NCBI GenBank assembly: GCA_963663765.2
Contig: CAXXUA010000006.1
Span: forward strand, 352,001 to 416,000
From: Candidatus Poribacteria bacterium
GTDB taxonomy: Bacteria > Poribacteria > WGA-4E > WGA-3G
DNA length: 64,000 bases
Direction of reading: 5' to 3'
In this document: positions 30,801 through 58,284 of the stretch, in pieces
Layout of the letters: the number at the start of each line of letters is the position of its first letter
How positions within the stretch are numbered: position 1 is the stretch's first letter
The notes under the pieces: model-generated
What the model saw: only the letters and a program-made list of their open reading frames with translations
Databases searched by the model: none
What the model was told of the DNA's origin: nothing
Translations under genes and position numbers: made by a program

Positions 30801-32614
30801 GGAGGACTTGGACTTTTAATCGAACCAGTTTGGAATAGAAACTTAAATCTTTATCCTCAACTATTTCTGCAGTTTCTATGACTTTTAATCGAACCAGTTT
30901 GGAATAGAAACATTTACTTCTCAGGCCTCTACTGGATAAAAGCGTCGCTTTTAATCGAACCAGTTTGGAATAGAAACTTTGACGAATTATGACGAATTAT
31001 GACGAATTTTAAGGCTTTTAATCGAACCAGTTTGGAATAGAAACTTCCTTTGCGATGTATATCGCTTCTGGGTTTTGATCTTTTAATCGAACCAGTTTGG
31101 AATAGAAACTCGTATTAGCAGCAGGTCTCGCAATCCCCCAAGACGCTTTTAATCGAACCAGTTTGGAATAGAAACTTTTGATGCGACAGTACGACATGCC
31201 ACCAGAAACCTTTTAATCGAACCAGTTTGGAATAGAAACAAGCCCGCGACGACGAGAGACGACTCAACGAAGACTTTTAATCGAACCAGTTTGGAATAGA
31301 AACAACTTCCCCGTAATCCTATCAAAAAACATGCTAAACCTTTTAATCGAACCAGTTTGGAATAGAAACGTTTCGTGTCCCCCCGTCTTCAGCGTTTTGT
31401 TCCATCCTTTTAATCGAACCAGTTTGGAATAGAAACTAAGTAAAACCAGTATTTAGAAGATAATAAATTTCACTTTTAATCGAACCAGTTTGGAATAGAA
31501 ACTTAGCATAAACATCAATAAACATTATGTCTTCAGCTTTTAATCGAACCAGTTTGGAATAGAAACTTCAAAAGGTCTTTGACGTAGTGGTACCAAATCA
31601 CTTTTAATCGAACCAGTTTGGAATAGAAACTCGAGAGTACAATAGAAAGGATGAAAATAAGAAATAAACTTTTAATCGAACCAGTTTGGAATAGAAACAT
31701 CCTAATCCTAACTAAAATTGAAAATGAACTTTTACTTTTAATCGAACCAGTTTGGAATAGAAACCTGCCTATAAGCATAGAAGAACAAAGAGAGAAGGTA
31801 CTTTTAATCGAACCAGTTTGGAATAGAAACGTTGGCTCCATTATCATTACGCAACTGGGTACTTTGCTCTTTTAATCGAACCAGTTTGGAATAGAAACTC
31901 TGCTGTGGTCTCTGGGGCTGCGGCGACTCTTTTTCCCTTTTAATCGAACCAGTTTGGAATAGAAACTCAAGCACGGTGGATTTTTCGGTTGACGCATCAA
32001 CTTCCTTTTAATCGAACCAGTTTGGAATAGAAACTCAACCAATCGTATCTTACTTGATTTCAAATCATATACTTTTAATCGAACCAGTTTGGAATAGAAA
32101 CAACACATTTATTGCATCTAATTGAGCGTTCTTTAAACTTTTAATCGAACCAGTTTGGAATAGAAACTTGTAATTGGTCGGCATATCAAAGTTGAACTTG
32201 GTTTTCTTTTAATCGAACCAGTTTGGAATAGAAACTTCTCAACTTGCTGATGCCTGTGATGCCTTTGTCTTTTGCCTTTTAATCGAACCAGTTTGGAATA
32301 GAAACTGATGTAGCATTTCCTGAATTGTGAGTGAACGGTTTCTTTTAATCGAACCAGTTTGGAATAGAAACATTTTCAGATCTCCCAACACCGAAGCCAA
32401 CCCCAAACTTTTAATCGAACCAGTTTGGAATAGAAACGGTCTTATTGTCCTTCTTCATATAGCCGTCTCGCTTCTTTTAATCGAACCAGTTTGGAATAGA
32501 AACTTGATTTTAAATATGTAGTATGGAATGGCTAGGTTTGCTTTTAATCGAACCAGTTTGGAATAGAAACTTTTGCCACGCATTCCTACTGATTTTAAGT
32601 CTTTCCTTTTAATC
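24868..32614 (+). CRISPR. CRISPR array 1, about 116 repeats
   Basis: Repeat CTTTTAATCGAACCAGTTTGGAATAGAAAC (30 nt) with mostly 33-42-nt spacers; last full repeat 32541-32570; truncated CTTTTAATC at 32606-32614. Confidence 0.99.
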
Positions 32615-33815: not shown

Positions 33816-34160
33816 GTGAAGATTAAGGCAACCTTTGATGTTTTAGTATTTCTTATGGCATTAATGGTTCTCTGTATGCATTTTACTATTTTGGCACAAG
33901 AAAGTTCATAGTTGGAAGATGCTGAAGTCGCTGTTAATCAAGTGGAGTGGGGTTCCTATGTGGTTTCCGACGGTTATTGTGGTTTTTACGCTGTAACCAC
34001 CGTCTGCAGCACGGTTCGTTGGAAAATCGCTAGAATATAACTGTATTTGTATACAAACTTACAAAGCAAAGGTCCGGAACCGTCAAGCAGGTCCTGTTTT
34101 CTGGGTTGTTTGGCTGGATGGCTTGCTTTATACTTAACCGGTCTGGTATCCAATCAATGA
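33816..34160 (+). pseudogene. Degraded small secreted or membrane protein gene
   Basis: GAGG RBS, signal peptide VKIKATFDVLVFLMALMVLCMHFTILAQ, in-frame TAG at 33909, then LEDAEVAVNQVEW and frameshifted PPSAARFVGKSLEY...QTYKAKVRNRQ and GCLAGW. Confidence 0.5.
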
Positions 34161-34711
34161 AGATTATAGAATCTCTGTTGCCGCATCGCCCTCCATTTTT
34201 AATGGTTGAATCAATCATTGGATACATAGGTGGTGATACTCCTATTCTCAATGCGGAGCGACCTATCTGTCCCTCTGAGTCCGTGTTCTTCAGTGTTGAA
34301 CCGCCGTTGCATTGGCCATCGGTGTACATCATTGAAGGGCTGGCACAATGCTGTATTCTCTTGACTCTTATTTGGGCATGTGAACGTAGGTGTGAGGCGG
34401 ATGGATTAGGCGCGGAAAATGTGAGTGATCTTTTCACAAACACAGAGAGTGTTGATAACGACTACACTTTGGCGCAATTATTAGAAAATTTGACAGACAA
34501 AACAGTGAATGATGTTTCCAGAAAAGGCATGTTAGCTTCGGTAGATGTTGAGATCGTTGGTAATGTTCAAGCAGGCAAGTTACTTCAATATAGGATAGAA
34601 CTGACACGTGTGTTTGGAAGATTCGTCAGCTTTGCGGTACAAGCATCTGTTGAAACCCAGGTTGTCACCCATGGTACGATAGTGGGTGCACAATTGGAGA
34701 ATTATTTATGA
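34157..34711 (+). CDS. FabZ-like hotdog-fold protein, catalytic His apparently absent
   Basis: IESLLPHRPPFLMVE and WPSVYIIEGLAQ present; GHFP motif missing. Confidence 0.75.
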   Translation: MKIIESLLPHRPPFLMVESIIGYIGGDTPILNAERPICPSESVFFSVEPPLHWPSVYIIEGLAQCCILLTLIWACERRCEADGLGAENVSDLFTNTESVDNDYTLAQLLENLTDKTVNDVSRKGMLASVDVEIVGNVQAGKLLQYRIELTRVFGRFVSFAVQASVETQVVTHGTIVGAQLENYL

Positions 34712-36252
34712 CGCGCTATTCCGATGTAGTAATCATTGGTGGCGGCCTTGCGGGGTTGACTTTGGCACTTCAGCTGCGGCAAACGCTTCCGACACTCAGT
34801 GTGACAGTGCTTGAGCGGCACCGATACCCTGTTCCTGAAACAACTTTCAAGGTTGGTGAGTCAATGGTCGAGGTCTCTTCTTGGTATCTTCGAGAAACGT
34901 TGGGTTTAGGCGATCATCTTCTTGCGTCACACCTGCCCAAGTTTGGGTTGCGCTTTTTTATGAGTAACTCAGACAACAGGGATCTGGGATGCCGTCCGGA
35001 ATATGGTCTGCTCAGAATTCCAGAAGATATGCCCACTAAACCAAAGATGAACCTGCCGGGAATCCATCTGCCGACATATAACATTGACCGGGGACGTTTA
35101 GAGAACCATCTTCTGGAGTGCTGTCGCAAGATTGGTGCTGAAGTTATAGAAGCGTGCAAAGTTAAAAGTTTGAATCTCGGTGATCCGCATGAACTTGTCA
35201 CCGACACAAGTATGCCCAATTCAAAACTACGGTCGCGTTGGATTATTGACGCAACTGGTCGTGCGGGGTTCCTCGCGCGGCGTTTGAAACTTAGACAGAC
35301 GCGAGAACATGAGGTCAATGCTGCATGGTTTCGGCTTGCTGGACGGATAGACCCAGATTGTTGGAGCGAGGATACAGCGTATCACGATAGAACACGTCCA
35401 GGTCTACGTTGGCTAAGCACGAATCATTTAATGGGAGACGGTTACTGGATCTGGCTGATTCCACTTCCAAGTGGTGCTACGAGCGTCGGCATTATGGCAG
35501 ATCCTAACCGGCATGCGCTTGAGCAACTCAACCGATTTGAAAAGGTGTTGACTTGGCTTAAACGACGGGAACCGCAACTGGCTGAGGTTGTCAGTTCTAT
35601 GGAACATCTGGACTTTCACGCCATGAAAGCGAGATCTTATCTCTGTCGTCGGACACTTTCGGCGGATCGTTGGGCACTCTGCGGTGAATCCGCTTTTTTT
35701 GTAGATGCACTCTATTCACCGGGCGGCGATTTCATCGCTGTGGGGAACACCCTCATCACACAGATGATTGCGGCAGATTACGCCGAAGATCGACTCCGAT
35801 TAGCAATTCTTGCCAGATTTGGTGAGGGGTTGCTTAAAGGCATGTTCCGGCACTATTTTGGGTTGTATCACGGAAACTACGCGTTGATGGGGAGACCTGG
35901 AACCATGCTACAGAAGGTTGCATGGGACACTGCCGTTTACTTCGCTTACAATGTTCTGCTTTTCTGTAACGATCATTTCTGTGACCCTGGGTTTCACCAG
36001 ATGATTAAAAAGGAAAATGCCCTATTAGAGAGTCTGCAACAGCGTATGATACACCATTTCAAACGGTATGAATCACCAAGAAACTCTTACGCTGGGTACT
36101 TTATTGATCAAGCCTATGTTGAGCATGTTCAGTCGCTCTATTTGTCCAGTGAAGACCGTTTAGAAGATGTTGATGTGCTCAAAGCCCGGTTAAAAGAAAA
36201 TATAGATATCTTAGAGGATTTTAGCAAAACAATAGAGGAAATTGTGAGGTGA
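34708..36252 (+). CDS. Flavin-dependent halogenase-like protein
   Basis: GGGLAG FAD motif, KVGES, DATGR, WIWLIP (WxWxIP) and FVDALYSPG. Confidence 0.85.
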   Translation: MTRYSDVVIIGGGLAGLTLALQLRQTLPTLSVTVLERHRYPVPETTFKVGESMVEVSSWYLRETLGLGDHLLASHLPKFGLRFFMSNSDNRDLGCRPEYGLLRIPEDMPTKPKMNLPGIHLPTYNIDRGRLENHLLECCRKIGAEVIEACKVKSLNLGDPHELVTDTSMPNSKLRSRWIIDATGRAGFLARRLKLRQTREHEVNAAWFRLAGRIDPDCWSEDTAYHDRTRPGLRWLSTNHLMGDGYWIWLIPLPSGATSVGIMADPNRHALEQLNRFEKVLTWLKRREPQLAEVVSSMEHLDFHAMKARSYLCRRTLSADRWALCGESAFFVDALYSPGGDFIAVGNTLITQMIAADYAEDRLRLAILARFGEGLLKGMFRHYFGLYHGNYALMGRPGTMLQKVAWDTAVYFAYNVLLFCNDHFCDPGFHQMIKKENALLESLQQRMIHHFKRYESPRNSYAGYFIDQAYVEHVQSLYLSSEDRLEDVDVLKARLKENIDILEDFSKTIEEIVR

Positions 36253-37028
36253 GTATACACGTTGATCGTGTGAGGGTGCGGTTATCTCAATTATTCCGTG
36301 ATATACCACAGCCTTCGCCTATTGATGTCCATCCAAAAATATATGAGCGTGTATCGGATGCACGTGCATACTTTTTGCGTGGATTCAGTGAAGCACTGAA
36401 GGTTCCACCGGAAGCACTGCCTAATCTTTTGCAGGTTACGCCATTTCAAGGGCGTGGTTTCGCAATTGAAGGTATGGCTATGGCACTTACCTTAATGGAT
36501 GAATTAAGCCCAGTACCATATAGTAGGCTCTGTGTCTTGTTTGATGGTAGATCAGCTGAAGAACAGACACTTGCTGCGATTGGTGTCGGATGGGCAAGTG
36601 CGCGCTTGGGCAAACCGCTTGACTGGTCACCGACGGCGTTAGGTTCACATTATATGTCCGCAGTTGTAGACGGGTACGGCTTTCACCAAGGATTCTTCCA
36701 TCTCCAGCGGTTCACAGGCAGAGGATTTCCTATGAACACTGGCGTATTAAGCAATTTTTATGATATAGGTCTCGGACGTGCATTGTGGTTTGTTCATATC
36801 GGTCGCGTTGAACCTATTGTACACACGATTGACAGATTTTTACCGGACCGACGTATTCAACTTTGGCAAGGGGTCGGTACTGCTTGTGCTTTTACGGGTA
36901 GCACAGAATATGCAGCGGCACAGATAGGTGAAGCCGCTGCAAAGTTTGTGTCTGATTTTCAAATAGGATTAAAAACTGGCAAGCAATTGCTACATAATTT
37001 CGCTAAACAAACGGAGAAAATAAAATGA
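36249..37028 (+). CDS. DUF1702 family protein (enediyne E3/UnbL-like)
   Basis: GFAIEGMAMAL, IGVGWASAR, DGYGFHQGFF, DIGLGRALWF and LWQGVGTAC motif series. Confidence 0.78.
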   Translation: MSIHVDRVRVRLSQLFRDIPQPSPIDVHPKIYERVSDARAYFLRGFSEALKVPPEALPNLLQVTPFQGRGFAIEGMAMALTLMDELSPVPYSRLCVLFDGRSAEEQTLAAIGVGWASARLGKPLDWSPTALGSHYMSAVVDGYGFHQGFFHLQRFTGRGFPMNTGVLSNFYDIGLGRALWFVHIGRVEPIVHTIDRFLPDRRIQLWQGVGTACAFTGSTEYAAAQIGEAAAKFVSDFQIGLKTGKQLLHNFAKQTEKIK

Positions 37029-38116
37029 AAAGAAGAGATTTCTTGATAGGTGGTATGGGTGCCCTGGCAGCCGGTGTCACCGGTTGTGCGGGGATCAACC
37101 AAGTTATTGCCCCAAGTTGGTCCGATGTTACGCCTTTGGAGATGGATCGTTTTCTAATTGCTTCGGATGAAGCAATGAATCGCATTGTGGAAAACCCAGA
37201 CGGAGGGCACGCTATCAGTAAACTTCAACAGAAACCGATGCGTGAAAAAGACGCACAGCTGTTCCGTCAAAGTATGCGCTCTCTCCTACTCGTCGGCAAC
37301 TTCGGTGATTTATCTGTAGCTGGCCAAGTGCATCCGGGTGTCCAGAAAAGGCTTCACTACTCTGCTCCAGAGATGGGTGCAGCGGCCTTTGGTACAATGA
37401 ATCAGATGAGGTCGCTGTCTCCGACTGCGCGTGCCGATATTCAATCAGTTCTCCGTGAAGATCCCACGCTTGGTGCTCAAACGCTTGAGGCAATGGACCT
37501 TGAAGCTGCTGCTGTCGGGGCATCTAATCGTCGCCGAAAGCAGTTGCATGTGATAGGGCAACGTATCATTGATCGTTTGAAGCATTCCTCAGACATGTTT
37601 ATTAACGAATATGTCACCAAATGCGAAAAACTTGCAGCCTTATCAGGTTCCGCTGCTGAAACGCAGCGATTTATGGCGGCGCGCATAGGGCAGGCAGCTT
37701 TTAAAGCCCGGCTTAAGGAAGCAGAAAACGCGGTTCGGTATTGGCAAAAGCAGGATCTTGAAGATATTCCCATTAGCTATCAACCGGTGACAGATAAAGG
37801 AATAAACGACGAAAATTTGCCAGATGTTGCCAGCCAAGATCAACGCAAACCACAGCAGTTGCCGAAACCGGGAAATATAGCGAGCCAAAGTGGTAGCGAG
37901 CCAAGTGATGGTTGGTACAGATCAGGTTTATTTATGCTTGGGATTAGTAGTGTAGTCTTTGTGAGCGGTTTGGGACTCATCGCAATTGGTGGTGGCATAG
38001 ATTCAGAAGTGGGCAACGTTGGAGCAATTATGACCATCGGAGCTGTGTTACTTGGGATGTTTAGTTGTTGTATTATCCTCATCGGAGGTATTATAGATAT
38101 ATTTGATGGTCCATGA
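37025..38116 (+). CDS. Tat-exported lipoprotein with C-terminal TM helices
   Basis: MKRRDFL twin-arginine motif, VTGC lipobox, two hydrophobic C-terminal segments. Confidence 0.75.
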   Translation: MKRRDFLIGGMGALAAGVTGCAGINQVIAPSWSDVTPLEMDRFLIASDEAMNRIVENPDGGHAISKLQQKPMREKDAQLFRQSMRSLLLVGNFGDLSVAGQVHPGVQKRLHYSAPEMGAAAFGTMNQMRSLSPTARADIQSVLREDPTLGAQTLEAMDLEAAAVGASNRRRKQLHVIGQRIIDRLKHSSDMFINEYVTKCEKLAALSGSAAETQRFMAARIGQAAFKARLKEAENAVRYWQKQDLEDIPISYQPVTDKGINDENLPDVASQDQRKPQQLPKPGNIASQSGSEPSDGWYRSGLFMLGISSVVFVSGLGLIAIGGGIDSEVGNVGAIMTIGAVLLGMFSCCIILIGGIIDIFDGP

Positions 38117-40041
38117 AAATTGTCGTCACTGGTCTCGGGGTACACTGTGCTTTGGGCAAAAACATTCAAACGTTCTGGCATGCTATAGAACAAGGCAGCA
38201 GCGGTATTGCATCTATCAATCGCTTCAACGTTGATTCATTTGATACCGAGTTGGGGGCGATGGTGTGTTCGGGCGATCGCTACGACACCGACGCACAACG
38301 TCTCTTGGCTTACGGGTGTGCTGCAGCCACTGAGGCGCTCCAACATGCCAAAATTGGCAATAGGGATCGAGTTGGCTTGGTGCTTGGGACTTGTAATGGA
38401 TTGTTGGGGAGAGAGTTACACAGTGTAAGCACTGATCTCGCGAGCACCTTGAAACTTGAAGGACCCGCTATTACTGTTTCAACAGCGTGTGCATCGTCCG
38501 CGCATGCGATAGGGTTCGCTGCAGATTTGGTACAACACGGTGTCGTTACGTCTGTTCTTGCAGGTGGCGTAGATATTCTCAGCGCAGAGATTTTCGCTGG
38601 ATTTCACAGTTTGGGTCTTCTCTCTAAACACCCGTGTGCGCCCTTCAGTACAAATATTGGAACTACCCTTGGTGAAGGTGCTGCGTTTATGGTTCTTGAA
38701 TCTGAATGCTCAGCGAAAGCACGGGATGCTACACCTCTGGCAGAATTCATGGGCTACGGATTGTCTGCCGATGCCTACCACGATACAACGCCTATCCCGT
38801 CAGGCTTAGGGATGTCACAGTCACTTACTGTTGCTGTGAAGGATGCAGGACTTACCTCCGAGGAAATTAACTATCTTAATGCTCATGGCACAGGCACAGC
38901 CTCGAACGATGCGTCTGAATGGCGGGGAATTCAGCGCGTCTTCGGCGATTTTGCTAACCTATTACCAGTTAGTTCAAGCAAGAGTTTTCTCGGCCACGCA
39001 CAAGGTGCTGCCGGTGCACTTGAGGCAGTGGTAACTTTGATGGCTATGAAGCACAAAGTTGTCCCTCCGACCATCAATGTTACGCAACTCCGTCGCAACG
39101 CTCCGACGGATCCCGTTGCAGAACCAAAACCGAGACCGTATATGATACGGCACGCCATAAGTACCAATGCGGCGTTTGGAGGTGTCAACACTGCCTTGGT
39201 TTTTGGGCAAGCAGATGGGACACCACGAGACCAGAGAGAAGTTCCACGTTTTATAAGCCTTACTGGCGAGGGAACAGTTCAAGATGGTCAACAAGTTATC
39301 CAGTTCGCGCCGCGTCCTGAGCTGCGAGGTATAGATATGTCAGCGCGCCTTCTCGCCGGTGCGACCGGTGCTGCCTTAGCAGATGCCGGAGTCCGCCTTC
39401 GAACATCAGGCTGCGAAGAGGTTGGTCTTTTCGTTGGTCAGACCCGAGTCTCGCCAGAGAGTGTCAAAGCCTTTGATAAAAGTGTTCAAGCAGGCGGATT
39501 AACACACCTTTCGGTAGCTGCCTTCACGCGAATGGTCTGTAATTATGCGACCGGTGTTTGTTGCAGACTTTTTGGATTAAAAGGTCCCACAGCGACACTT
39601 TCAACCGGAGTGGATAGTGGACTTACGGCTCTTATTTTTGCGGCAGACCATCTCGCCTGGCGTGATGATGTTAATCACCTATTGGCTGCAGCAGTTGACG
39701 AATCGGACGAATCGGATAATTATGAAAATGGAGCTGCCAGTATTCTTCTTAAAGCGGGAGAAGCGTCTGCTCCTATTAATCTAACCGGATGGGCACTTGC
39801 AACAAATTGTGAATTAGCTACTGAACGGGCTTTGGCGAATGCATCTCTCAACCGCGAAGCGGTTGTGCCGATGGCTGTTCCGGGACCCCCTACCGTTGCT
39901 GGACTTTGGGCAGTTATCGCTGCTATGGATGCCTTAAAAGCAGGGGCAAATGGGCCTTTCCTTATATGTAACCGAGGTGAGGGATCTGTAGGCGCAGCTG
40001 TCATTCTGCAAACTGGGAGCAAAGCATGCAACCTGAACTAA
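38113..40041 (+). CDS. Type II ketosynthase fused to an inactive KS-like (CLF-like) domain
   Basis: TACASS, HGTGT and KSFLGHAQGAAG (Cys-His-His); second domain GLKGPTATLSTGVDSG lacks the Cys. Confidence 0.9.
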   Translation: MKIVVTGLGVHCALGKNIQTFWHAIEQGSSGIASINRFNVDSFDTELGAMVCSGDRYDTDAQRLLAYGCAAATEALQHAKIGNRDRVGLVLGTCNGLLGRELHSVSTDLASTLKLEGPAITVSTACASSAHAIGFAADLVQHGVVTSVLAGGVDILSAEIFAGFHSLGLLSKHPCAPFSTNIGTTLGEGAAFMVLESECSAKARDATPLAEFMGYGLSADAYHDTTPIPSGLGMSQSLTVAVKDAGLTSEEINYLNAHGTGTASNDASEWRGIQRVFGDFANLLPVSSSKSFLGHAQGAAGALEAVVTLMAMKHKVVPPTINVTQLRRNAPTDPVAEPKPRPYMIRHAISTNAAFGGVNTALVFGQADGTPRDQREVPRFISLTGEGTVQDGQQVIQFAPRPELRGIDMSARLLAGATGAALADAGVRLRTSGCEEVGLFVGQTRVSPESVKAFDKSVQAGGLTHLSVAAFTRMVCNYATGVCCRLFGLKGPTATLSTGVDSGLTALIFAADHLAWRDDVNHLLAAAVDESDESDNYENGAASILLKAGEASAPINLTGWALATNCELATERALANASLNREAVVPMAVPGPPTVAGLWAVIAAMDALKAGANGPFLICNRGEGSVGAAVILQTGSKACNLN

Positions 40042-40328
40042 AAGAAAAAATTGAACATCGTGAAAATACACTCAATCGTGTGATTGAACTGCTAATTTCC
40101 GGTCTGCAACTTGATCGTTCTTATGAAGAATTAGATCCGGATACACCCCTTTTCGGTACCGGACTCGGGCTTGACTCTGTAGATGCTGTTGAGATCGTTG
40201 TGGCTTTGGAATCGGAATTCGGTGTTTCACTTGAGGAAGGTGATAGCATGTTCGCCCTACGCACAATTAATTCCCTTGTGGATGTGGTACTGAGTCAAAG
40301 TGAGGATAATCTTGATGACGGAAGCTGA
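40026..40328 (+). CDS. Acyl carrier protein
   Basis: PLFGTGLGLDSVDAVE phosphopantetheine site; acidic, 100 aa. Confidence 0.92.
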   Translation: MQPELKEKIEHRENTLNRVIELLISGLQLDRSYEELDPDTPLFGTGLGLDSVDAVEIVVALESEFGVSLEEGDSMFALRTINSLVDVVLSQSEDNLDDGS

Positions 40329-41343
40329 AATTAGTTATCATGCTATTCGTAACTCGGTTGCTTTTGCTGAAGAACCTGAGCTGCGGTGCCTGCAGCTGAC
40401 TGGTAGCCAAGCCATTGATGTGCTTGATGCCGTATGTCCATGCGATATCTTTCTTCAAGATGGGCAGATGAAGCACACATTGCTGCTGGACGATACGGGT
40501 GTCCCTTTTGCTGATGTGTATGTTTGCAGAGAAGACGAAAATGCGTATCTGATTGGCTATGGATCCAGTGCTGATGAGATTACCGACTGGATTACCAATC
40601 GCGCAACCGGTATTACCGATTTTTCAGTGGTCAATCTTGGCGAGTCATACGATAATTTGACAATTGAGGGTCCCTATGCTTGGGAACTGTGTGCGGAAGT
40701 ATTCGGGGCTGATATGCTCGGTTTACCCTATTTGGGGATGCAGGTGTTGAATGAAATGCTTGTGTTTCGTGCGGGCAGGACAGGGGAATATGGGTATCAC
40801 CTATTGGTGCCGACGGACCAAAAAGACAGTTGGATTGAAAATTTGCTTGCTACAGGTGCAGCATTCGAGATAGCACGCGCCGATGCGTCTGTCCGAGCCC
40901 AATGTGTATTAGAAAATTTCTTCTTTGATATCAATAGAGAAGGTGCGTATAATCTGACACCTTTGGAGTTGCAGCTACAGTGGCGGTTGTCCTCACAGAA
41001 AACCGCGTATCCCGGTGCTGAAGCGATACACGCGCGCCGACAATCTGGATGGACGCATAGGCTCACCTGTTTTACTACACCGGACCCTGTAAATGCTGAT
41101 GCAGAAATTACCTGTGAAGGTGTAGTCGTTGGGCATGTTTTAGTGGCAGGATATTCGCCTGCGCGAGGTGATTACGTGGGTAAGGCGTTGCTTCGCCAAC
41201 CGTATTGGCACGCTGGTTTGGATGCCTTTCAAGTCGGTGATATTCCTTTAAAGACCATCTCGGCTCCAGCGATCAATAACCTGAGTTTAAAAGTTAGCCC
41301 CTACCGTCACAGTTTTCACACGCGAGCGGAGGACCTAATCTGA
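40315..41343 (+). CDS. GcvT/aminomethyltransferase-like folate-binding protein
   Basis: YHAIRNSVA, MKHTLLLDDTG..FADVYV, IEGPYAWEL, RAGRTGEYGY and TPLELQLQW. Confidence 0.8.
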   Translation: MTEAEISYHAIRNSVAFAEEPELRCLQLTGSQAIDVLDAVCPCDIFLQDGQMKHTLLLDDTGVPFADVYVCREDENAYLIGYGSSADEITDWITNRATGITDFSVVNLGESYDNLTIEGPYAWELCAEVFGADMLGLPYLGMQVLNEMLVFRAGRTGEYGYHLLVPTDQKDSWIENLLATGAAFEIARADASVRAQCVLENFFFDINREGAYNLTPLELQLQWRLSSQKTAYPGAEAIHARRQSGWTHRLTCFTTPDPVNADAEITCEGVVVGHVLVAGYSPARGDYVGKALLRQPYWHAGLDAFQVGDIPLKTISAPAINNLSLKVSPYRHSFHTRAEDLI

Positions 41344-42086
41344 TGCGTTGGGAAGGTTCAACTGTGTTAGTCACGGGTGCTTCTCGAGGATTGGGAGGGA
41401 TCATCGCTAAAGCGTTTGCAGACGAAGGTGCCTTCGTCGGGATTGGTTACCGTCGCTTTGACAAGGGTGCTGAGAAAACGCTTGCCGAGATCCGCCGAGA
41501 TGGTGGAAGTGCTACACTGGTAAAAGCAGATGTGAGCGATGCTGAAGCAGTTGACAAGGCGATTAAAGTTTTCCTTGTTCAGCGTGAAGGTATTGATGTG
41601 TTGGTAAATAACGCAGCAATTGTAGAGGACAAGCCTTTCGCGCTCATGTCTACAGAGAGTTGGACAGCAATCCTTGAAACTAACCTCGGCGGTGTTTTCA
41701 ATTGTTCACGAGCAGTGGTCCGTTCAATGATGGCAAAAGGTAAAGGTTCTATTGTAAATATTGGTTCTGTAGCGGGGCTTATTGCTAGTCCTGGACAAGC
41801 CAATTACGCAGCATCTAAAGGTGGAATTATGGCTTTGACGCGTACTTTAGCGGCTGAACTTGCCCCTAAAGGGATTCGTGTTAATACTGTGGTGCCTGGA
41901 CTTCTCACAGAAGGTATGGCACAGCGAATGAATAGACACCTTGCTGAAGAGAAGCGATGCCACATTCCCTTAGCCCGTTTTGGAAACCCCGAAGAGGTTG
42001 CTCACGCAGTGCTTTTTCTCGCTTCCGATGAGGCGAGTTATATCACAGGGCAGCAGTTAGTCGTAGACGGAGGGTTGTCATTGTGA
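41343..42086 (+). CDS. 3-oxoacyl-ACP reductase (FabG-like SDR)
   Basis: TGASRGLG, NNA, GQANYAASK, YITGQ..VDGG. Confidence 0.93.
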   Translation: MRWEGSTVLVTGASRGLGGIIAKAFADEGAFVGIGYRRFDKGAEKTLAEIRRDGGSATLVKADVSDAEAVDKAIKVFLVQREGIDVLVNNAAIVEDKPFALMSTESWTAILETNLGGVFNCSRAVVRSMMAKGKGSIVNIGSVAGLIASPGQANYAASKGGIMALTRTLAAELAPKGIRVNTVVPGLLTEGMAQRMNRHLAEEKRCHIPLARFGNPEEVAHAVLFLASDEASYITGQQLVVDGGLSL

Positions 42087-42943
42087 AGACTGCCCTTCTC
42101 TTTAGCGGTCTGGGTGATCCCACTACGCACACAGTCCTGCAGCGGGAAATGGCACAAGATTCTCGATTGATTGAATGTGCTCTTCGTGCCAGCAACTGTA
42201 CTGCTGACTCGCTTTTTTCTGATGATGGACGCATGCTGCAGTTAAGCGAGGTAATTCAACCCTTACATATTGCTTTAGCGTTGACACAAGCACTCAGGGC
42301 GCGGGAGGAGGGCTTTGAAGCAGATTTCTTTGCTGGTCATTCTTTAGGAGAAGTCGCAGCATGGACATTCGCGGGCGCGATGTCCGCTGAAGATGCCATC
42401 GAAATCGCTGCAGTTCGGGGACGATCCATGGGGGCCGTTGCTCGTATCTATGAAGGCGATATGCTCGCGTTAACTGATATTGATGCGGGTGGGGTGCAAA
42501 AAATGCTGACTATTGGACAGACACACGGTCGGTTGACCGTGGGAGCATACAATGCACCTCAAGAAGTCGTTCTCACGGGAACGTTTCCGGCATTACAAGC
42601 AGTCGTACCTCTTTGCCAATCCCGCCGTTTAAACGTGGGCGGTCCCTGGCACAGCCCGCTTATGAAAGAAGCAACCCCAGAACTTGCTGCAGCGTTAGAC
42701 AGGGTGTGCATCAGACAAAATATTCGTCCTATTATTTCTGGAATCACTGGGGCTTGCATCAATGACACAAAAGATATAGTGTCTCAATTTCTGTCACAAT
42801 TGACTGAACCCTTACATTGGACGACTGCCCTCGCCACCTTAGCCTCATTAGGGGTTGAACGTTTCGTGATAGCAGGTCCGGGTAGAACACTCCGTTATTT
42901 GGTACGTCGTAATCTCCCCCAAGCAAAAGTAGCGTTGATATGA
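42083..42943 (+). CDS. Malonyl-CoA:ACP transacylase (FabD-like)
   Basis: GHSLGE, VRG, YNAPQEVV and PWHSPLM. Confidence 0.9.
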   Translation: MKTALLFSGLGDPTTHTVLQREMAQDSRLIECALRASNCTADSLFSDDGRMLQLSEVIQPLHIALALTQALRAREEGFEADFFAGHSLGEVAAWTFAGAMSAEDAIEIAAVRGRSMGAVARIYEGDMLALTDIDAGGVQKMLTIGQTHGRLTVGAYNAPQEVVLTGTFPALQAVVPLCQSRRLNVGGPWHSPLMKEATPELAAALDRVCIRQNIRPIISGITGACINDTKDIVSQFLSQLTEPLHWTTALATLASLGVERFVIAGPGRTLRYLVRRNLPQAKVALI

Positions 42944-42990
42944 AGTAGTCCCAAATTCTCTTATTTGACCTTGTTCAGGGAATACGCCTC

Positions 42991-43545
42991 TTGAAAGATG
43001 ATAGAAAATTTCTTATCGGTGCCGATGTCATTGCACACTTGATACCTGAGCGGCATCCAATGATTATGGTTGATCGGGTTATTGGTTATAGGAGTTCACC
43101 GCGACTCCAACTATCTGCCGAACGCTATGTGTCTGCTAACGAACCGGTATTTGTTGGGCATTTTCCAGATTTAAAATTGTGGCCCGGTGTTCACACTATT
43201 GAGGGTCTCCGACAATGCTGTGTACTTCTTGATGTCATTCGCCAACTGGAAAAAGTAGGGATGCTTGACGGACTTCTTGAGCTTCAAAGGGGCTATACGT
43301 TACAACTTCAAGTGGATCAAGTTCTGTGTCAGCGTGTGCTTGATACCCTACAAAGGTTACGTCAGCTTGAGCAATTGCCCCTTAGATTACGCGTAAAACT
43401 GCTTTCTCCGATTTTCGCGGGATGTACCATTGCGTATCAGGTCTATCAGAATACCCCAGACGTGCAGAGTTGGTCAGTACAAGCCGAAGTCAATGGGCAA
43501 AGCGTTGCGAAAGGAGAAATTGTATGTACATCTTTCGCTGGCTAA
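42991..43545 (+). CDS. FabZ-like dehydratase
   Basis: LIPERHPMIMVDRV and NEPVFVGHFP..WPGVHTIEGL. Confidence 0.82.
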   Translation: MKDDRKFLIGADVIAHLIPERHPMIMVDRVIGYRSSPRLQLSAERYVSANEPVFVGHFPDLKLWPGVHTIEGLRQCCVLLDVIRQLEKVGMLDGLLELQRGYTLQLQVDQVLCQRVLDTLQRLRQLEQLPLRLRVKLLSPIFAGCTIAYQVYQNTPDVQSWSVQAEVNGQSVAKGEIVCTSFAG

Positions 43546-44867
43546 CGTTGATGCTGGCACTACTCATTTGCGGTTGTAGTAAGGAATATCTCGTTTGGTA
43601 CGGTCACAGTCCTGACCGCCTCCACCGAGTAGAAGTCATTGAAAAAGATAAACGTCAACAACTCAAGTTAGACGCAACACTTTCGCAACCTTACCTTGGT
43701 GTGGCACTGGAAACCATTGTCTTTAGTAAAGATTCCAAACGTTTTGCCTATGCTGCTGAGACAGATTCGGGTTGGGTTGTCATCGCTGATGGCGTGCATA
43801 GCCGTCCATGGACAGGCGTCGGAGAAGTCGTATTTGGTCCTCAGCATCAACTCGCTTATGTTGCTGCGGATTCGGAAGGTTGGCGAGTTATACTCGAAAG
43901 CACACCGAGCTCTCCGTTTGAAGCTGTAATGCAAGGATCGCTTACCTTATCACCCAGGGGGTGCCGCCTCGCTTTCGTGGTTGTTGAGGGTAATCAATTC
44001 CGTGTCATTGTGGACGGAGAGGCTGACCCACTTTATGACGCTATTGGTATGCTTCGGTTCGTACCTATAGGTGAACAGTTCGTCTATGTTGCCAGAATAG
44101 GTGATCAACAATACCTCGCCTTAGATGAGAAATTGCTGGGACCGTTTGATTTACTTGCTGATTTCACCTTCGGTCCAAACGGCAAATTAGGTATACTGGC
44201 TCGATACAATGACGGATGGCAAGCAGTAATAGATGGTCAAAAGAGTGAAGTCTTTGATAACTTAGGCAGCATTCAATTCTCGCAAGGCGGACAGTATGCC
44301 TATGCTGCCGAACTGAACGATAGCTGGTTCATTATCCGAGATGGTGAACGCAGTTTAGCCTTTAGCAGCGTCAATCAACTTACTTTTGCGGGGGAGTCAT
44401 TATTCTACAAGGCAAGTTGTGACAGCGACAACTTTGTTGTCTCTGACACTATTCGCGGCCCATCATTGAAATGGGTAGGACGTTTGATTGTCAGTCCTGA
44501 TGGGCTTCACCTCGTCTACATGGGACAGCCTTGGGACGGGAGCGTCTCAGTTTTTCACAATGGGACGGTGAACGCTGTCCCTTACGCGCTAAAAGGCACA
44601 CTCGTTTTGAGCAACGACTATCAACATTGGGCATGCTTAGTGCAAAACGAAATTGATGGGGGCATTGATATTGTTGTTGATGGACAATTTCGTTACCCTT
44701 TTGATTTGGAAGAGATGATGGCACTCATCATGTTAACCCCTGATGCTTTGAGTTTCCAACACGAAAAAATGATACGCCGTTGGGTTAAAGCGGAACTCGA
44801 ACACTACTACGCCAAAGCAGCATCAACACAATCGTCTGAAAAGTCTAAGAATTCAACGCAAAAGTAA
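43524..44867 (+). CDS. Beta-propeller-like lipoprotein
   Basis: AAGGAG RBS, LLICGC lipobox, repeated FS.DG..FAY.A....W.VI.DG units. Confidence 0.72.
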   Translation: MYIFRWLTLMLALLICGCSKEYLVWYGHSPDRLHRVEVIEKDKRQQLKLDATLSQPYLGVALETIVFSKDSKRFAYAAETDSGWVVIADGVHSRPWTGVGEVVFGPQHQLAYVAADSEGWRVILESTPSSPFEAVMQGSLTLSPRGCRLAFVVVEGNQFRVIVDGEADPLYDAIGMLRFVPIGEQFVYVARIGDQQYLALDEKLLGPFDLLADFTFGPNGKLGILARYNDGWQAVIDGQKSEVFDNLGSIQFSQGGQYAYAAELNDSWFIIRDGERSLAFSSVNQLTFAGESLFYKASCDSDNFVVSDTIRGPSLKWVGRLIVSPDGLHLVYMGQPWDGSVSVFHNGTVNAVPYALKGTLVLSNDYQHWACLVQNEIDGGIDIVVDGQFRYPFDLEEMMALIMLTPDALSFQHEKMIRRWVKAELEHYYAKAASTQSSEKSKNSTQK

Positions 44868-45776
44868 TCTGAAAAGCATATAATGGGAAATATATGCAGA
44901 AAACGGAAAAATATCTGCAAGGAGGTACGCATGAAAGCAGGGTTATTCAGTTTTAACCATTTTTCACATTTTTGTGAGAAAATCGCGACCGGGAGGTCGC
45001 TCCTACCGCATTGGGCATGCTTAGTGCAAAACGAAATTGATGGGGGCATTGATATTGTTGTTGATGGACAATTTCGTTACCCTTTTGATTTGGAAGAGAT
45101 GATGGCACTCATCATGTTAACCCCTGATGCTTTGAGTTTCCAACACGAAAAAATGATACGCCGTTGGGTTAAAGCGAAACTCGAACACTACTACGCCAAA
45201 GCAGCATCAACACAATCGTCTGAAAAGTCTAAGAATTCAACGCAAAAGTAATCTGAAAAGCATATAATGGGAAATATATGCAGAAAACAGAAAAATATCT
45301 GCAAGGAGGTACGCATGAAAGCAGGGTTATTCAGTTTTAACCATTTTTCACATTTTTGTGAGAAAATCGCGACCGGGAGGTCGCTCCTACCGCATTGGGC
45401 ATGCTTAGTGCAAAACGAAATTGATGGGGGCATTGATATTGTTGTTGATGGAAAATTTCAATACCCTTTTGATTTGGAAGAGATGATGGCACTCATCATG
45501 TTAACCCCTGATGCTTTGAGTTTCCAACACGAAAAAATGATACGCCGTTGGGTTAAAGCGGAACTCGAACACTACTACGCCAAAGCAGCATCAACACAAT
45601 CGTCTGAAAAGTCTAAGAATTCAACGCAAAAGTAATCTGAAAAGCATATAATGGGAAATATATGCAGAAAACGGAAAAATATCTGCAAGGAGGTACGCAT
45701 GAAAGCAGGGTTATTCAGTTTTAACCATTTTTCACATTTTTGTGAGAAAATCGCGACCGGGAGGTCGCTCCTACCG
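44625..45776. repeat. Tandem triplication, 384-bp unit (gene 3' end + MITE arm + REP)
   Basis: CATTGGGCATGC starts at 44625, 45009, 45393; each unit ends in GGTCGCTCCTACCG; only a few SNPs between copies. Confidence 0.95.
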
Positions 45777-45931
45777 CGAGGTCTCTTTTTCAATTATCCA
45801 AAAATTAGGAAAACTGAATAACCCTGGGGTTGGAATAGAATATGCTTGTTTTAAAAATGAGTTAGGTTTTGATAATTAGCATTATCAAACATTATACAAA
45901 GTTCAACACTTTTTCAAAAAGGGAATATCGT

Positions 45932-47064: not shown

Positions 47065-48786
47065 TTAATTTGGTATAAGTTCGTGAAGTTCAGCGCGGAG
47101 CGCATTGATGGGTGCAAACAGTACCTCTTTGACAATAACAGGTGGGTCTAATAAGTTGCCATGCAGGATTTCGTAGCGCGCATCCCAGCAACCATATCCT
47201 TCTTTCCCTAACATTTGAAGAAAGAGGACGTGTTGATGTTGATTTTCCGATGTCGATGTGCCTTTATGGATATAATATGTTGCCTTACCGGTATTTGGAT
47301 GTAGGTAATCCTGCACCCTGCAAGAAAAGCGTATACCACCCAATTCTGTAAGTGTCAAGAGTGGATTTTTAACGAGATTAACAAGAAATTCAACACAGTG
47401 AAGAACAGCATCTGGGACTGCACATATTCCCTCATAAGTGAATACGAGATCGTGCCAATTTGCCCCGTTGTAACCAGAAGGGGAACCAGTATAAACGTTC
47501 ATCCCCCACGAGTTATCCCACCGTTCCATTGGCCAATCTTTTATTCCTTGGCGTTGGTAAAAACGTTCTCCACCAAAGAAACTCGGACCTTGGTCATCTT
47601 CAGGGGAGTGACCTATCGGCATAAAGGAAATACCAGCATCCTCTAAATCATCAAGCAACACAGGATAATTGCGTGCACAATAGATGCTGTGTTGATGCGG
47701 ATAACCTCTGTTGTGAATAGCAGGCATTATCTCTGTCCTGCGTTGCCTGATTTGAAAACGGAGCGAATAATAATCTATCATTTTTTCTGCGTCAAGTTCT
47801 AAATCAGAACTGAATAATAAGACGTAAGCTTGCTGTTTAGTGGTTAGGTTTGTTTTTTTGATACAAACGACATTCAATGGGTCGGGGAACTTTTTGTGGT
47901 GTAGTTCCATTTGATACACATCAGTTCTCAGATTGTCCTCTGTCTGTGTAAAAATAGAGTATTTTTCATCAATCTTATGTGGATTGACACGTTCTCCATA
48001 GATCGCACGCCGTCCGCGTCCCTTGTAAGGTGTTGTCGGTGGAAAATGCAACGCAGCATCGGTGCGTAGTTTTGAAATAAGATGGAGACCACATTGATTT
48101 ACCATTTGTAGAGCGTTATTATTTCCAAAATAGCCATCCAGGACAAAATAACGGATGGGTATCAAGTTATTTATTAGTTGTAGCACTTTTTTGAGCAGCG
48201 TTTGAAGTTGTTTCAAAGTATCACTGAGAACGACATCTCTTTTATTTTTGTTTCGGCTCCCTTTTGGACGTCCACCTTTAGATTTTGCTGTCTTGTTGGT
48301 GATGTCTGACTGTTTAGTCGGAGCGGCAGCAGGCTTTGAAGTTTTTTCACACCGAACGATTTGCTCAATAGCCATCGGGTAGGAACGTCGCTGAGATACA
48401 CTGACTAAGGATATGGCTAAGAACGATAAACCGGGTATGCTTTTCCCATGCAATGAGGAAAAAAAGCGTGATAAACCATAGGTGCATTTTCCATCTTTGC
48501 TTCTGACAACTTCATCGCCTGCTAAGATATAAACACTCTCATGATCAAGCAAGTGTGTGCGAAAAAAAGTCCAACACATTGTCGTCCAAGGAAGAACTGT
48601 GTTGAAAAAGCGTTGTATAGTGCGGTAACTACCTCCTTTTAATGTCCAACGAGAGATATTTAACATGGTGACCCGTCCTGTCATCGCAAGTAGTGCGAAT
48701 ACAACTTGACATAACTGACGGATCGTTGTTTTTGAAATACATGGATTAAGAATTGAAAAAAGTGCTATAATTTCTAACATGGGCAT
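47065..48786 (-). pseudogene. Truncated DDE transposase (IS4/IS701-like) fused in frame to an unrelated protein fragment
   Basis: GGSYRTIQRFF, AGDEVV and VLDGYFG; transposase similarity ends at YYSLRFQI before the expected Glu; TIR upstream at 48855-48869. Confidence 0.75.
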
Positions 48787-49845: not shown

Positions 49846-50124
49846 CAGGACTTACGCAGTTTCTTGATTTAATCAAGGATTATGTTGAAAATGATGTAAT
49901 TAATCAGTATTGTTATAGGGTTCCAGCGCGCTTACAAAGCACCAAATCAAGAAATCAAGAAATCAACGGTATGAATGCCTTTTGGCATTCCCCGGGTATG
50001 AATGCCTTTTGGCATTCCCCGGGTATGAATGCCTTTTGGCATTCCCCGGGTATGAATCATGGAGCATGCCACACGCGCATGCTTCTTTATGCATTCCCCG
50101 CCTACCGTTTTTGCGTAAGTTCTG
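49846..50124. mobile_element. MITE with IS701-type ends
   Basis: CAGGACTTACGCA / TGCGTAAGTTCTG; 5-bp TSD TATAG. Confidence 0.85.
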
Positions 50125-50975: not shown

Positions 50976-51067
50976 GAGTCACGATTTTCATCTTGACAGA
51001 TATATCAAGAACCTTGTATAATGTTAATGCTTTTTTAGAAGTCTTAGAATTAATATAGGTTGTAGGA

Positions 51068-51289: not shown

Positions 51290-51332
51290 TCTTAAATGTC
51301 CGCGCTTCAGAGAGAAAAGCATACGTAGGTTG

Positions 51333-54551: not shown

Positions 54552-54608
54552 GAGTAAAAATCGGTTAGGGTGAATCAATTTTCACTCTAATTTCGATTGG
54601 AGATAATC

Positions 54609-58276: not shown

Positions 58277-58284
58277 AAATATCC

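Follow-up and report, generated by a model that had tools for sequence, protein, structure and literature searches.

Among the described systems that come closest to the gene cluster considered here are the highly reducing (polyene-type) type II PKSs, represented by the ishigamide Iga system, the aryl-polyene (Ape) clusters and the flexirubin and xanthomonadin clusters. Xanthomonadins are brominated. PltA and the protein of PDB entry 5buk act on carrier-bound pyrrole, and DUF1702 proteins have, to our knowledge, been described elsewhere in no pathways but those to enediyne antibiotics. In the accessible text of PMC10698177, the combination of KS-CLF, KR and DH is what gives rise to polyenes.

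A related arrangement lies in a 64,000-nt stretch of a Candidatus Poribacteria genome (contig CAXXUA010000006.1), hereafter the window, where eleven genes form one compact block at 34157-44867, all on the + strand:

34157..34711, +, g01: FabZ-like protein, catalytic His absent (NCBIfam FabZ)
34708..36252, +, g02: flavin-dependent halogenase-like protein, 514 aa (PDB matches and motifs)
36249..37028, +, g03: short-form DUF1702 protein, 259 aa (Pfam PF08012)
37025..38116, +, g04: predicted Tat-exported lipoprotein of a nameless family (sequence motifs)
38113..40041, +, g05: fused KS and CLF-like domain, 642 aa (Pfam, NCBIfam and PDB)
40026..40328, +, g06: ACP (Pfam PP-binding)
40300..41343, +, g07: GcvT-like protein (Pfam GCV_T)
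41343..42086, +, g08: FabG-type 3-oxoacyl-ACP reductase (NCBIfam)
42083..42943, +, g09: FabD/MdcH-like malonyl transacylase (Pfam and NCBIfam)
42991..43545, +, g10: FabZ-like dehydratase, catalytic His kept (NCBIfam FabZ)
43524..44867, +, g11: predicted PD40/TolB-like beta-propeller lipoprotein (lipobox Cys and look-alikes)

A preliminary description had read this region as eleven co-directional, mostly overlapping genes of a type II FAS/PKS-like cluster, and that reading is borne out: every ORF was recovered on the + strand, nine of the ten junctions overlap (by 4, 4, 4, 4, 16, 29, 1 and 4 nt, then, after a 47-nt gap, by 22 nt), and its family assignments agree with our Pfam and NCBIfam searches. 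The longest form of g01 begins at a TTG at 34106, and the ATG at 34157 chosen earlier is preferred because it better fits homologues of 184-185 aa; likewise the longest g11 ORF begins at 43422, with 43524 the probable start because the homologues are 447 aa long and carry an invariant lipobox Cys. The block has no enoyl reductase and no thioesterase, in agreement with the preliminary description, nor does it hold a starter-loading enzyme, flavin reductase or PPTase, and none of the eleven proteins reaches a pathway-specific (equivalog) cut-off in NCBIfam. A CRISPR array sits immediately upstream, and a tandem repeat, an AbiEi-like ORF and a transposase follow downstream.

The nearest relatives, and the best-matching loci, are Candidatus Poribacteria MAGs, a sponge-symbiont lineage, which agrees with the host suspected at the outset. 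How the genes are ordered, that this order is conserved in several phyla, the catalytic motifs and the family assignments are matters of direct observation. The full eleven-gene order recurs in five of the thirteen short-form DUF1702 loci (L001-L013), namely L001, L002, L003 and L005 from Poribacteria and L007 from KSB1; L008, L009 and L013 are interrupted by contig ends, and partial gene sets are present in Latescibacterota and Bacteroidota. Locus L006 is missing FabG and FabD, in L008 the halogenase is not preceded by a FabZ-like gene, and in L004 nothing remains but g01-g04 and a KS stub of 74 aa, after which come ABC-2 permeases. Because identical gene order recurs in other genomes, the arrangement is not due to chance, and since the adjoining genes vary between genomes, the eleven genes constitute a conserved unit. 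The searches found no full synteny to a characterised cluster, and the literature searched held no published description of this one. The cluster is real and, among polyene-type type II PKS clusters, an uncharacterised variant; within the best explanation as a whole, which we rate slightly better than even, it would be a single operon belonging to a sponge-symbiotic member of the Poribacteria.

The core of the cluster is a dissociated (type II) FAS-like PKS made up of KS-CLF, ACP, FabD, FabG and a paired FabZ. The KS domain of g05 (residues 1-367) matches both ketoacyl-synt domains in Pfam and carries the triad Cys126, His258 and His295; the rest, an extension of about 260 aa (residues ~380-642), is a Cys-less, CLF-like half-thiolase that matches PDB 9s5h_C (6.5e-9) and has Val500 where PDB 4ewg has Cys. 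The fusion noted in the preliminary description is a family trait, with triad and Cys-less second domain kept in 6/6 homologues and almost all of the 61 homologues found being fused forms of 636-643 aa. Against PDB the KS scores nearer to FabF (5.4e-58, 200 bits) than to the Iga-type KS 6kxd, which we take to be Iga11 (6.2e-48, 167 bits), or to the KS 6qsp, presumably ApeO (2.4e-38, 135 bits). The ACP, g06, matches PP-binding at 1.6e-11, with Ser51 within LDSV, and PRK09184 at 4.9e-14, under its cut-off. FabG-type g08 matches TIGR01830 at 1.3e-80, and g09 has a GHSLGE motif and matches Acyl_transf_1 (1.7e-20) as well as, under both cut-offs, TIGR00128 (5.1e-38) and TIGR03131 (2.6e-39).

The two FabZ-like proteins differ at the catalytic residue. 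In g10 (NCBIfam FabZ, 2.3e-19) the catalytic His57 and Glu71 are present, and the GHFP...PGV..IE pattern shared with the PDB FabZ alignment is conserved in 6/6 homologues. The FabZ match of g01 (TIGR01750, 7.9e-11 to 1.2e-10) is confined to its N-terminal part, residues 19-88, where S-V-E replaces G-H-F in the alignment; Val47 thus stands at the His position, none of seven homologues has His there, and Glu60 is kept. The label "FabZ-like without His" is therefore accurate. Probably g01 is a non-catalytic partner subunit of the dehydratase, and by analogy a g01-g10 heterodimer is assumed.

Could the block simply be an auxiliary FAS, in which host FabI fully reduces the chain, the product is an ordinary or hydroxy acyl group destined for a membrane lipid or for g04/g11, and halogenation is a minor decoration? 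A KS nearest to FabF (295 bits to fabF in NCBIfam) and a g08 that passes the FabG subfamily NF009466 (244 against a cut-off of 222) fit this idea. Host FabI is recruited to a type II PKS-like ACP in the cispentacin pathway, where it reduces the chain on AmcB (accessible text of PMC10698177), and a Poribacteria-specific KS clade, which might or might not include g05, is labelled fatty-acid synthesis in the accessible text of PMC9864124. Housekeeping FAS, however, does not fuse its KS to a Cys-less CLF-like domain, pair its dehydratase with a His-less subunit, or couple translationally to a halogenase, a DUF1702 protein and a GcvT-like protein, and both FabH and FabI are absent from the unit. 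We regard an auxiliary FAS as unlikely. Very improbable, in our judgement, is a machine like those for cispentacin or coronafacic acid, performing one elongation and cyclisation to a five-membered ring with no long chain. The g05 KS is collinear with AmcF (243 bits, over 2-368 of 369), g10 matches AmcE (2e-12), the ACP matches AmcB (8.2e-7) and the C-terminal half of g05 weakly matches AmcG (20 bits), but all four scores fall under the NCBIfam cut-offs (325, 140, 80 and 80). An adenylating loader of the AmcH/Cfa5 type, an aminotransferase and an AmcD hydrolase are all missing from g01-g11, and FabD and FabG, which this cluster has, do not figure among AmcB-AmcH, the seven proteins listed in the accessible text of PMC10698177.

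The type II PKS core is joined by a flavoprotein, g02, which we predict to be a flavin-dependent halogenase resembling PltA and ChlB4. Its PDB matches include ChlB4 (3e-21), PltA (3.7e-19), 5buk (2.9e-15) and CmlS (5.4e-14); 13 of the 14 are flavin halogenases, the other being a flavoprotein with no assignment. The signatures G11-x-G-x-x-G16, K78 and W247-I-W-L-I-P252 are invariant in 7/7 homologues from four phyla, which upholds the earlier call of a halogenase bearing WxWxIP, a motif that is, as far as we know, specific to halogenases; Lys78 aligns with a Lys in the PltA segment FPKKFG. About 380 of the 514 residues align to PDB halogenases, and the C-terminal ~130 aa are family-specific. 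The same protein might instead be a reductase or monooxygenase that replaces the missing enoyl reductase or hydroxylates the chain, giving a non-halogenated lipid. This would be in keeping with an operon that has no flavin reductase, with a Trp_halogenase match (1e-9) that spans only the N-terminal residues 6-70, and with NCBIfam matches to QhpG (2.8e-21, 75.9 bits, the best), the geranylgeranyl reductase family (1e-16 to 9.9e-16), LodB/GoxB maturases and UbiH-type hydroxylases. CmlS scores much the same (7.4e-21, 74.2 bits), and all of these monooxygenase, CmlS and reductase scores are far under their cut-offs. Set against the PDB matches, Lys78 and the invariant W-x-W-x-I-P, a non-halogenase g02 seems to us quite unlikely.

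The match of g03 to the DUF1702 HMM is secure (PF08012, 3.7e-40; score 138 bits, cut-off 25), but the label "enediyne-type" holds for the family only. It has roughly 80 short-form homologues (36-90% identity) and falls in a clade of 14 rows that separates from 60 E3 rows with SH-aLRT 100, so g03 is best described as a distant relative of enediyne E3 in a short (~259 aa) clade of its own. The AF2 model is all-alpha (pLDDT 89.3), and no fold match for it was found in PDB (best E 0.053, TM 0.22). Like E3 (DUF1702/UnbL), g03 is encoded within a carrier-protein-based polyketide pathway, and at 37 positions, among them E74, D84, R119, H146, D172, R177 and R201, conservation reaches at least 85% in each of the two clades. 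In contrast, identity to E3 is 33-41%, the g03 C-terminus is shorter by a median of ~52 residues, and the enediyne cassette has PKSE, E4 and E5, all three lacking from the g01-g11 block; a type I KS lies near 52 of 67 long-form loci, and near 51 of 57 when the count is restricted to loci with 6 kb or more of downstream sequence.

Called GcvT-like from the start, g07 matches GCV_T above the Pfam cut-off (6.9e-27) and PDB T-proteins at up to 9.3e-11. It shares with the glycine-cleavage T protein and DmdA the GCV_T fold domain, and with T protein an R-T-G-E-x-G-Y motif and an Asp aligned to the T-protein 'DD'. Unlike them it scores far under every NCBIfam GcvT or DmdA cut-off (55-79 bits against 236-459 for the GcvT models), is encoded between ACP and KR, and has no H, P or L proteins nearby. 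An ACP and the GcvT-like protein are fused in two relatives, P0368 and P0444, which links the latter to the carrier. By its sequence, g07 is an aminomethyltransferase-fold protein and not a housekeeping GcvT.

Export is indicated for g04 by a twin-arginine motif, RRDFL, and by a lipobox, VTGC, in line with its first description as a Tat lipoprotein. It ends in two hydrophobic helices and has no Pfam or NCBIfam match; 510 representative clusters match it at E<=1e-3, 8 of 30 scanned relatives show weak TAT_signal matches, and its AF2 model (pLDDT 47.9) is unusable. No Pfam match was obtained for g11 either. The earlier propeller lipoprotein call is supported by an invariant Cys18 behind a hydrophobic leader, by language-model look-alikes in PD40 beta-propeller lipoprotein clusters of the atlas (score 0.95, 201 shared features) and by a weak PD40 match (1.1e-6) in a KSB1 homologue. 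Neither g04 nor g11 is a recognisable relative of E4 or E5, with hhalign probability <0.5% in all four comparisons.

Most likely, then, the g01-g11 operon builds a halogenated unsaturated lipid. We lean, though only just, towards a self-contained type II FAS-like polyketide system with tailoring and envelope proteins, and infer every chemical step, the halide, chain length, release and the roles of g03, g04, g07 and g11 from family membership. The FabD-like g09 would load malonate onto the dedicated ACP, g06; the fused KS-CLF would elongate the chain, the FabG-like g08 would reduce the beta-keto group, and an enzyme made of His-bearing g10 and His-less g01 would dehydrate it. Since the operon has no enoyl reductase, the ACP-bound chain would remain unsaturated in the way known from highly reducing type II PKSs, although, by analogy with cispentacin, host FabI could reduce it and the product may be partly saturated. 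The halogenase would then act on the carrier-bound chain, g03 and g07 might act on that ACP-bound intermediate, and the lipoproteins g04 and g11 may serve in the cell envelope to handle the product or to anchor it there. The polyene or polyyne product, the folate-dependent C1 step and the delivery to a lipoprotein put forward in the preliminary description are hypotheses.

Compared with the carrier-dependent halogenases PltA, 5buk, ChlB4 and CmlS, its best PDB matches, g02 has the FAD motif, the Lys and W-x-W-x-I-P in common. Unlike those systems, g01-g11 include no proline or pyrrole machinery, and the substrate of g02 would therefore be an aliphatic or polyene acyl-ACP, for whose halogenation the literature searched offered no precedent. 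The likeness to Iga, Ape and flexirubin-type PKSs lies in a discrete ACP, a KS with a Cys-less partner, KR, DH and no ER (accessible text of PMC10698177). The ACP and KS also match PRK09184 and PRK09185, and the KR matches FlxB (228 against 340), all under cut-off. The differences are that KS and partner are here fused in 642 aa, that this KS is nearer to FabF than to theirs, that an aryl starter ligase, thioesterase, LolA-like protein and MMPL exporter are missing from g01-g11, and that the cluster adds a halogenase, a DUF1702 protein and a GcvT-like protein.

The biosynthetic genes are packed into a single block of eleven + strand ORFs running from 34106 or 34157 to 44867. Nine of the ten junctions between them overlap (by 4, 4, 4, 4, 16, 29, 1, 4 and 22 nt) and the remaining one is a 47-nt gap. 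Matches to Pfam and NCBIfam bear out the gene list of the preliminary description for every member of the block.

Genes of the operon in order, all on the + strand, with their Pfam and NCBIfam matches
g01, from 34157: FabZ-like, N-terminal match
g02: flavoprotein matching halogenase, QhpG and CmlS
g03, 36249-37028: DUF1702 (3.7e-40)
g04: no family
g05: ketosynthase (KS) with an extension of ~260 residues
g06: acyl carrier protein (ACP)
g07, 40300-41343: GCV_T domain
g08: FabG
g09: FabD/MdcH-like
g10: FabZ
g11, ending at 44867: no Pfam family in the Pfam search

For g01, the ATG at 34157 chosen in the preliminary description suits the 184-185 aa homologues better than a TTG at 34106. The start of g11 most likely lies at 43524, which would give a protein of 447 aa like its homologues, in which the lipobox Cys is invariant. 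An Rfam scan of the window returned no match. Scans for promoter-like sites (20 versus 20.7 expected) and terminator-like sites (19 versus 12.0 expected, sd 3.7) gave no clear operon signals. The GC content of the operon (0.46-0.50) differs from that of its flanks (0.36-0.41), and this contrast was considered as a sign of transfer and set aside; the flanks with low GC consist of CRISPR arrays and non-coding DNA, and values of 0.47-0.50 are reached in other coding regions of the window.

The CRISPR-Cas locus occupies 24869-32570, 48894-49433, 50223-61078 and 61337-63961. The array immediately upstream of the biosynthetic cluster has 116 copies of a 29-30 nt repeat; a second, with 40 repeats, runs off the window. 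The cas operon is type I-B-like and comprises cas6, a 592-aa unassigned protein, cas7/DevR, cas5, cas3 with an HD domain, cas4, cas1 and cas2. Lone repeats at 48894, 49405 and 51384, between an IS701-like transposase and the cas genes, raise the thought that a formerly unbroken array may enclose the biosynthetic cluster together with a tandem repeat, an AbiEi-like ORF and the transposase.

That tandem repeat (44625-45777) is a 384-bp unit present 3.0 times at 99% identity, each unit made of the last 243 nt of g11 and 141 nt downstream. It creates two 122-aa ORFs (44883-45251 and 45267-45635) that carry the C-terminal 80 residues of g11. Either a genuine duplication or an error of assembly could explain it, and it is missing downstream of the g11 homologue in another Poribacteria locus (L003). 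Short GC-rich repeats of two families, dispersed as well as tandem, occupy intergenic sites at 5239-5976, 19674-20369, 21991-22178 and 49174-49324, and also at 10475-10852, 13431-13484 and 49968-50057. In the first family the unit is ~31-38 nt long and contains GGGCGCGCTTACAAAGCACGCCTAC; in the second it is hairpin-like and of 27-36 nt, GGTATGAATGCC...GGCATTCCCC. The stretch separating cas4 from cas1 (58286-59660) is taken up by repeats of 128 bp and 77 bp, interleaved with each other. At the start of the window (33-1242) lie 5.2 repeats of a 234-bp unit. They cover in full an ORF at 26-1219 that has no Pfam match, and this ORF is therefore doubtful as a gene.

Besides the large CRISPR-Cas locus, the window holds several other genes that bear on the identity of the host.

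Other genes of the window
1449-3317, 11454-13340, 17396-18511, 20848-21825, 23080-24531, 3623-5035, 6917-7975 and 47065-48786: four WD40-repeat proteins, a sulfatase and three transposases (Tn5/IS4-like, DDE_Tnp_1 and IS701-like)

Eukaryote-like repeat proteins of the WD40 type and sulfatases are typical of Poribacteria, and these genes, with the transposases and CRISPR-Cas, fit the assignment of the window to that phylum.

A protein search with g03 retrieved ~80 proteins of ~259 aa at 36-90% identity, followed by a tier of ~317-aa E3 proteins from actinomycetes and others at 33-41%. Genomes were then scanned with an alignment of 36 short-form DUF1702 sequences, and the best 80 of 408 confirmed loci were used. 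The top six are Candidatus Poribacteria MAGs, followed by KSB1, Latescibacterota and five Bacteroidota MAGs. Synteny, judged by tblastn with the eleven window proteins, is strict in five of these: the full set in the same order is found in four Poribacteria loci (L001, L002, L003 and L005; 63-95% identity) and in the KSB1 locus (L007; 51-79%). A further locus lacks FabG and FabD (L006:7909-18791), and three are cut by contig ends (L008, L009 and L013). In one Poribacteria locus (L004, 218-12324) only g01-g04 and a KS stub of 74 aa remain, with four ABC-2 permease genes after them. Three loci (L002, L005 and L006) carry g04 in duplicate. The genes flanking the operon vary from genome to genome, and the eleven genes are therefore a conserved unit.

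Three short-form loci from Bacteroidota MAGs, L010 (5673-6446), L011 (9896-10654) and L012 (9920-10675), belong to another type of cluster. In L011, the one scanned with Pfam, the neighbors are a TauD-family dioxygenase, methyltransferases, an NRPS (C-A-T-TE), a PPTase, an alcohol dehydrogenase, an ACP and a 644-aa protein without a family; the ORFs of L010 and L012 agree with these in size and order. Polyketide synthases are therefore not the only systems with which DUF1702 is associated. A plasmid collection yielded 49 records matching the DUF1702 query. The ten listed are all Streptomyces (32-35% identity), no record covers at least 80% of the query, and there is no short form among the matches listed.

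The preliminary description had assigned DUF1702 to 36249-37028, and the match is borne out (138 bits against the PF08012 cut-off of 25). On sequence grounds g03 is a true member of this family, in a separate short-form lineage. In a quick maximum-likelihood tree of 74 rows, 14 short-form rows split from 60 E3 rows on a branch with SH-aLRT 100; four of the 80 loci had been left out earlier for incomplete ORFs, and over-long ORF calls from L043, L052 and L062 were dropped. A type I KS lies near long-form DUF1702 in 52 of 67 loci, or in 51 of the 57 where at least 6 kb of downstream sequence is present. The short form lacks ~52 C-terminal residues (median) relative to the long. Conservation in at least 85% of both clades extends to 37 positions, and the residues common to both include E74, D84, R119, H146, D172, R177 and R201 as well as several Gly-x-Gly and Trp positions.

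The AlphaFold model of g03 is of high confidence (pLDDT 89.3, pTM 0.89) and has thirteen helices. Foldseek found nothing for it in the PDB at E<=0.001, the best hit being designed armadillo repeats (TM 0.22), and a g03 profile gave 0 matches to PDB sequences at E<=1. Paired E-x-x-H motifs are a feature of diiron desaturases; neither such a pair nor any metal-type motif was seen in g03. A lyase or isomerase would be compatible with the conserved acid-base residues, and a binding role equally so. To our knowledge, E3 has stood in the conserved enediyne cassette for some twenty years without a proven function. Gui et al., in 2024 work on a diiodotetrayne, reportedly found that iodinated polyenes and polyynes arise from the cassette. 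A 2020 review (PMC8341276) lists the formation of alkynes in enediynes as unproven.

In the synthase core, the KS of g05 carries the triad Cys126, His258 and His295, conserved in six of six homologues. Among PDB sequences it matches FabF enzymes best (5.4e-58), with a polyene KS (6kxd, 6.2e-48) and 6qsp (2.4e-38) behind. It is collinear with AmcF of NCBIfam at 243 bits, under the cut-off of 325. Residues ~380-642 form a half-thiolase (best PDB match 9s5h chain C, 6.5e-9) with Val500 where a KS has its active Cys, and this C-terminal half matches AmcG weakly (20 bits). We therefore take g05 to be a KS fused to a partner resembling a chain length factor (CLF). The fusion has 61 homologues, nearly all of 636-643 aa. 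Expected motifs are in place in the ACP (Ser51 within LDSV), in g09 (GHSLGE) and in g08 (YAASK).

The two dehydratase-like proteins differ in their motifs. Aligned with FabZ, g10 keeps GHFP...PGV..IE (His57 and Glu71), while g01 has S-V-E in place of G-H-F with the Glu kept, and this pattern of one protein with the His and one without holds in all homologues compared. FabZ active sites form across the dimer interface, and the simplest reading is therefore a g01-g10 heterodimer with one working site. The eleven-gene unit contains no enoyl reductase (ER), thioesterase, loader or PPTase, nor is there an ER anywhere between the CRISPR array and the transposase in the window. In the scheme for highly reducing type II PKSs outlined in part of PMC10698177, KS-CLF, ketoreductase (KR) and dehydratase (DH) without ER lead to a polyene. 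The same source includes an example of host FabI being recruited to such an ACP, so a saturated chain is also possible.

The flavoprotein g02 is quite probably a halogenase. Fourteen PDB sequences match it at E<=0.001, thirteen of them flavin-dependent halogenases (ChlB4, PltA, 5buk, CmlS, a tetracycline halogenase, 8zop, PltM, 5bva/5bul, 3e1t and RadH) and the other an unassigned flavoprotein. The N-terminal FAD-binding GxGxxG (G11-G-G-L-A-G16) is invariant in all seven homologues compared, drawn from Poribacteria, KSB1 and Chitinophagales. So are W247-I-W-L-I-P252, which aligns with W-M-W-Q-I-P of ChlB4 and W-V-W-Q-I-P of PltA, and K78 (LPKFGLRFF), which aligns with the Lys of FPKKFGAAW in PltA. 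We take that Lys to be the catalytic lysine of flavin halogenases, ~70-80 residues from the N-terminus. NCBIfam places the monooxygenase QhpG level with CmlS, every score being far under its cut-off. Judging from the operon, the substrate would be an ACP-bound acyl or polyene chain; the closest solved relatives presumably halogenate carrier-bound substrates. A complex prediction for g02 with g03 scored 0.00 against a mark of 0.32 and counts neither for nor against binding.

The GcvT-like g07 was considered as a glycine cleavage T protein and rejected: it falls below the equivalog cut-offs (54.9 versus 235.85 for TIGR00528, 78.7 versus 300 for NF001567), and neither gcvH nor gcvP lies near it in the window. 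As regards possible folate binding, one pairwise alignment shows just two motif-level similarities to T-protein. We take g07 to be a GcvT-fold protein that is distant from both DmdA and the housekeeping GcvT; its family, with at least 120 homologues at 42% identity or more, is larger than that of the cluster; one homologue at 54% identity (P0392) is named for the cultured Labilibacter sediminis. Two relatives, P0368 (447 aa) and the fragment P0444, are fusions of ACP and GcvT, tying g07 to the carrier, and another fragment (P0441) joins GcvT to KR. Assembly frameshifts could mimic such fusions, because the genes overlap. No earlier report of a GcvT-fold protein coupled or fused to an ACP was found in the literature searched.

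Read from the sequence, the N-terminus of g04 (M-K-R-R-D-F-L...V-T-G-C21) shows a twin arginine, a hydrophobic stretch and a lipobox Cys. In homologues holding an N-terminus the RR pair is present in nine of nine and the Cys in eight of nine, being absent in the Chitinophagales copy; one paralogue is truncated N-terminally. The protein also has two C-terminal hydrophobic helices and belongs to a broad, unnamed family (510 representative clusters) without a Pfam domain, with weak TAT_signal matches in 8 of 30 relatives scanned. Its AF2 model (pLDDT 47.9) is unusable, and the Atlas gave no usable match. Downstream, g11 is a putative lipoprotein whose look-alikes are beta-propellers of the PD40/TolB type. 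That the operon, cytoplasmic in its other members, encodes two proteins predicted to be exported suggests that its product may end up in the cell envelope.

It is tempting to see the operon as a minimal type II version of enediyne-cassette chemistry, in which g02 halogenates an ACP-bound polyene that DUF1702 then uses, and we consider this a long shot. The DUF1702 protein may eliminate HX or carry out an acid-base rearrangement, for example, and vinyl-halide or alkyne (ene-yne) units would result. By analogy with T-protein and the lipoyl arm of H-protein, g07 would act on the phosphopantetheine (Ppant) arm. Were all this true, the brominated acetylenic fatty acids of sponges, compounds that have long been known and for which we know of no identified maker, would have a source in Poribacteria.

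Whatever its chemistry, the cluster is kept in several species of a dominant, uncultivated phylum of sponge symbionts and in other candidate phyla. With a DUF1702 relative in a dissociated system that is small, its eleven proteins each expressible on their own, E3-type function could be easier to test. At ~10.7 kb it is also a concrete, clonable candidate for halogenated unsaturated lipids, and sponges are described in part of PMC2810233 as prolific sources of compounds of this type.

How, then, does the operon relate to systems already described? With the enediyne cassette (E3/E4/E5/PKSE/E10) it has DUF1702 in common, but as a separate short-form clade. The possibility that g04 and g11 are diverged forms of E4 (UnbV-like) and E5 (a UnbU-like membrane protein) was rejected: profiles of E4 and E5 built from six loci each were compared with those of g04 and g11 by hhalign, and all four comparisons gave probabilities of 0.1-0.4%. 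There is no multidomain PKS or thioesterase in the operon block. With E3 as the one shared component, the operon does not qualify as an enediyne cassette. Ape clusters feature an aryl starter-activating ligase, a thioesterase, and LolA-like and MMPL export genes, none of which is found among the eleven genes or their flanks. Scores against the cispentacin/Cfa-type equivalogs all fall short (AmcF 243 against a cut-off of 325, AmcG 20 against 80, AmcE 47 against 140, AmcB 29 against 80), and the operon has no adenylating enzyme to serve as an AmcH-type loader. PMC10698177 pairs Cfa3 and Cfa4 with AmcF and AmcG, two separate proteins, so Cfa3 is not a KS-CLF fusion. Since their defining accessory genes are missing or their equivalog scores are not reached, the operon is not an Ape, flexirubin or cispentacin system, and no description of this gene set was found in the literature searched or the NCBIfam library. 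A Poribacteria-specific KS clade labelled 'fatty-acid' in part of PMC9864124 may include the KS of g05. The closest likeness is to highly reducing type II PKSs, which the operon would resemble in mechanism: it has discrete ACP, KR and DH proteins and no ER, and a Cys-His-His KS with a Cys-less partner, both fused in g05.
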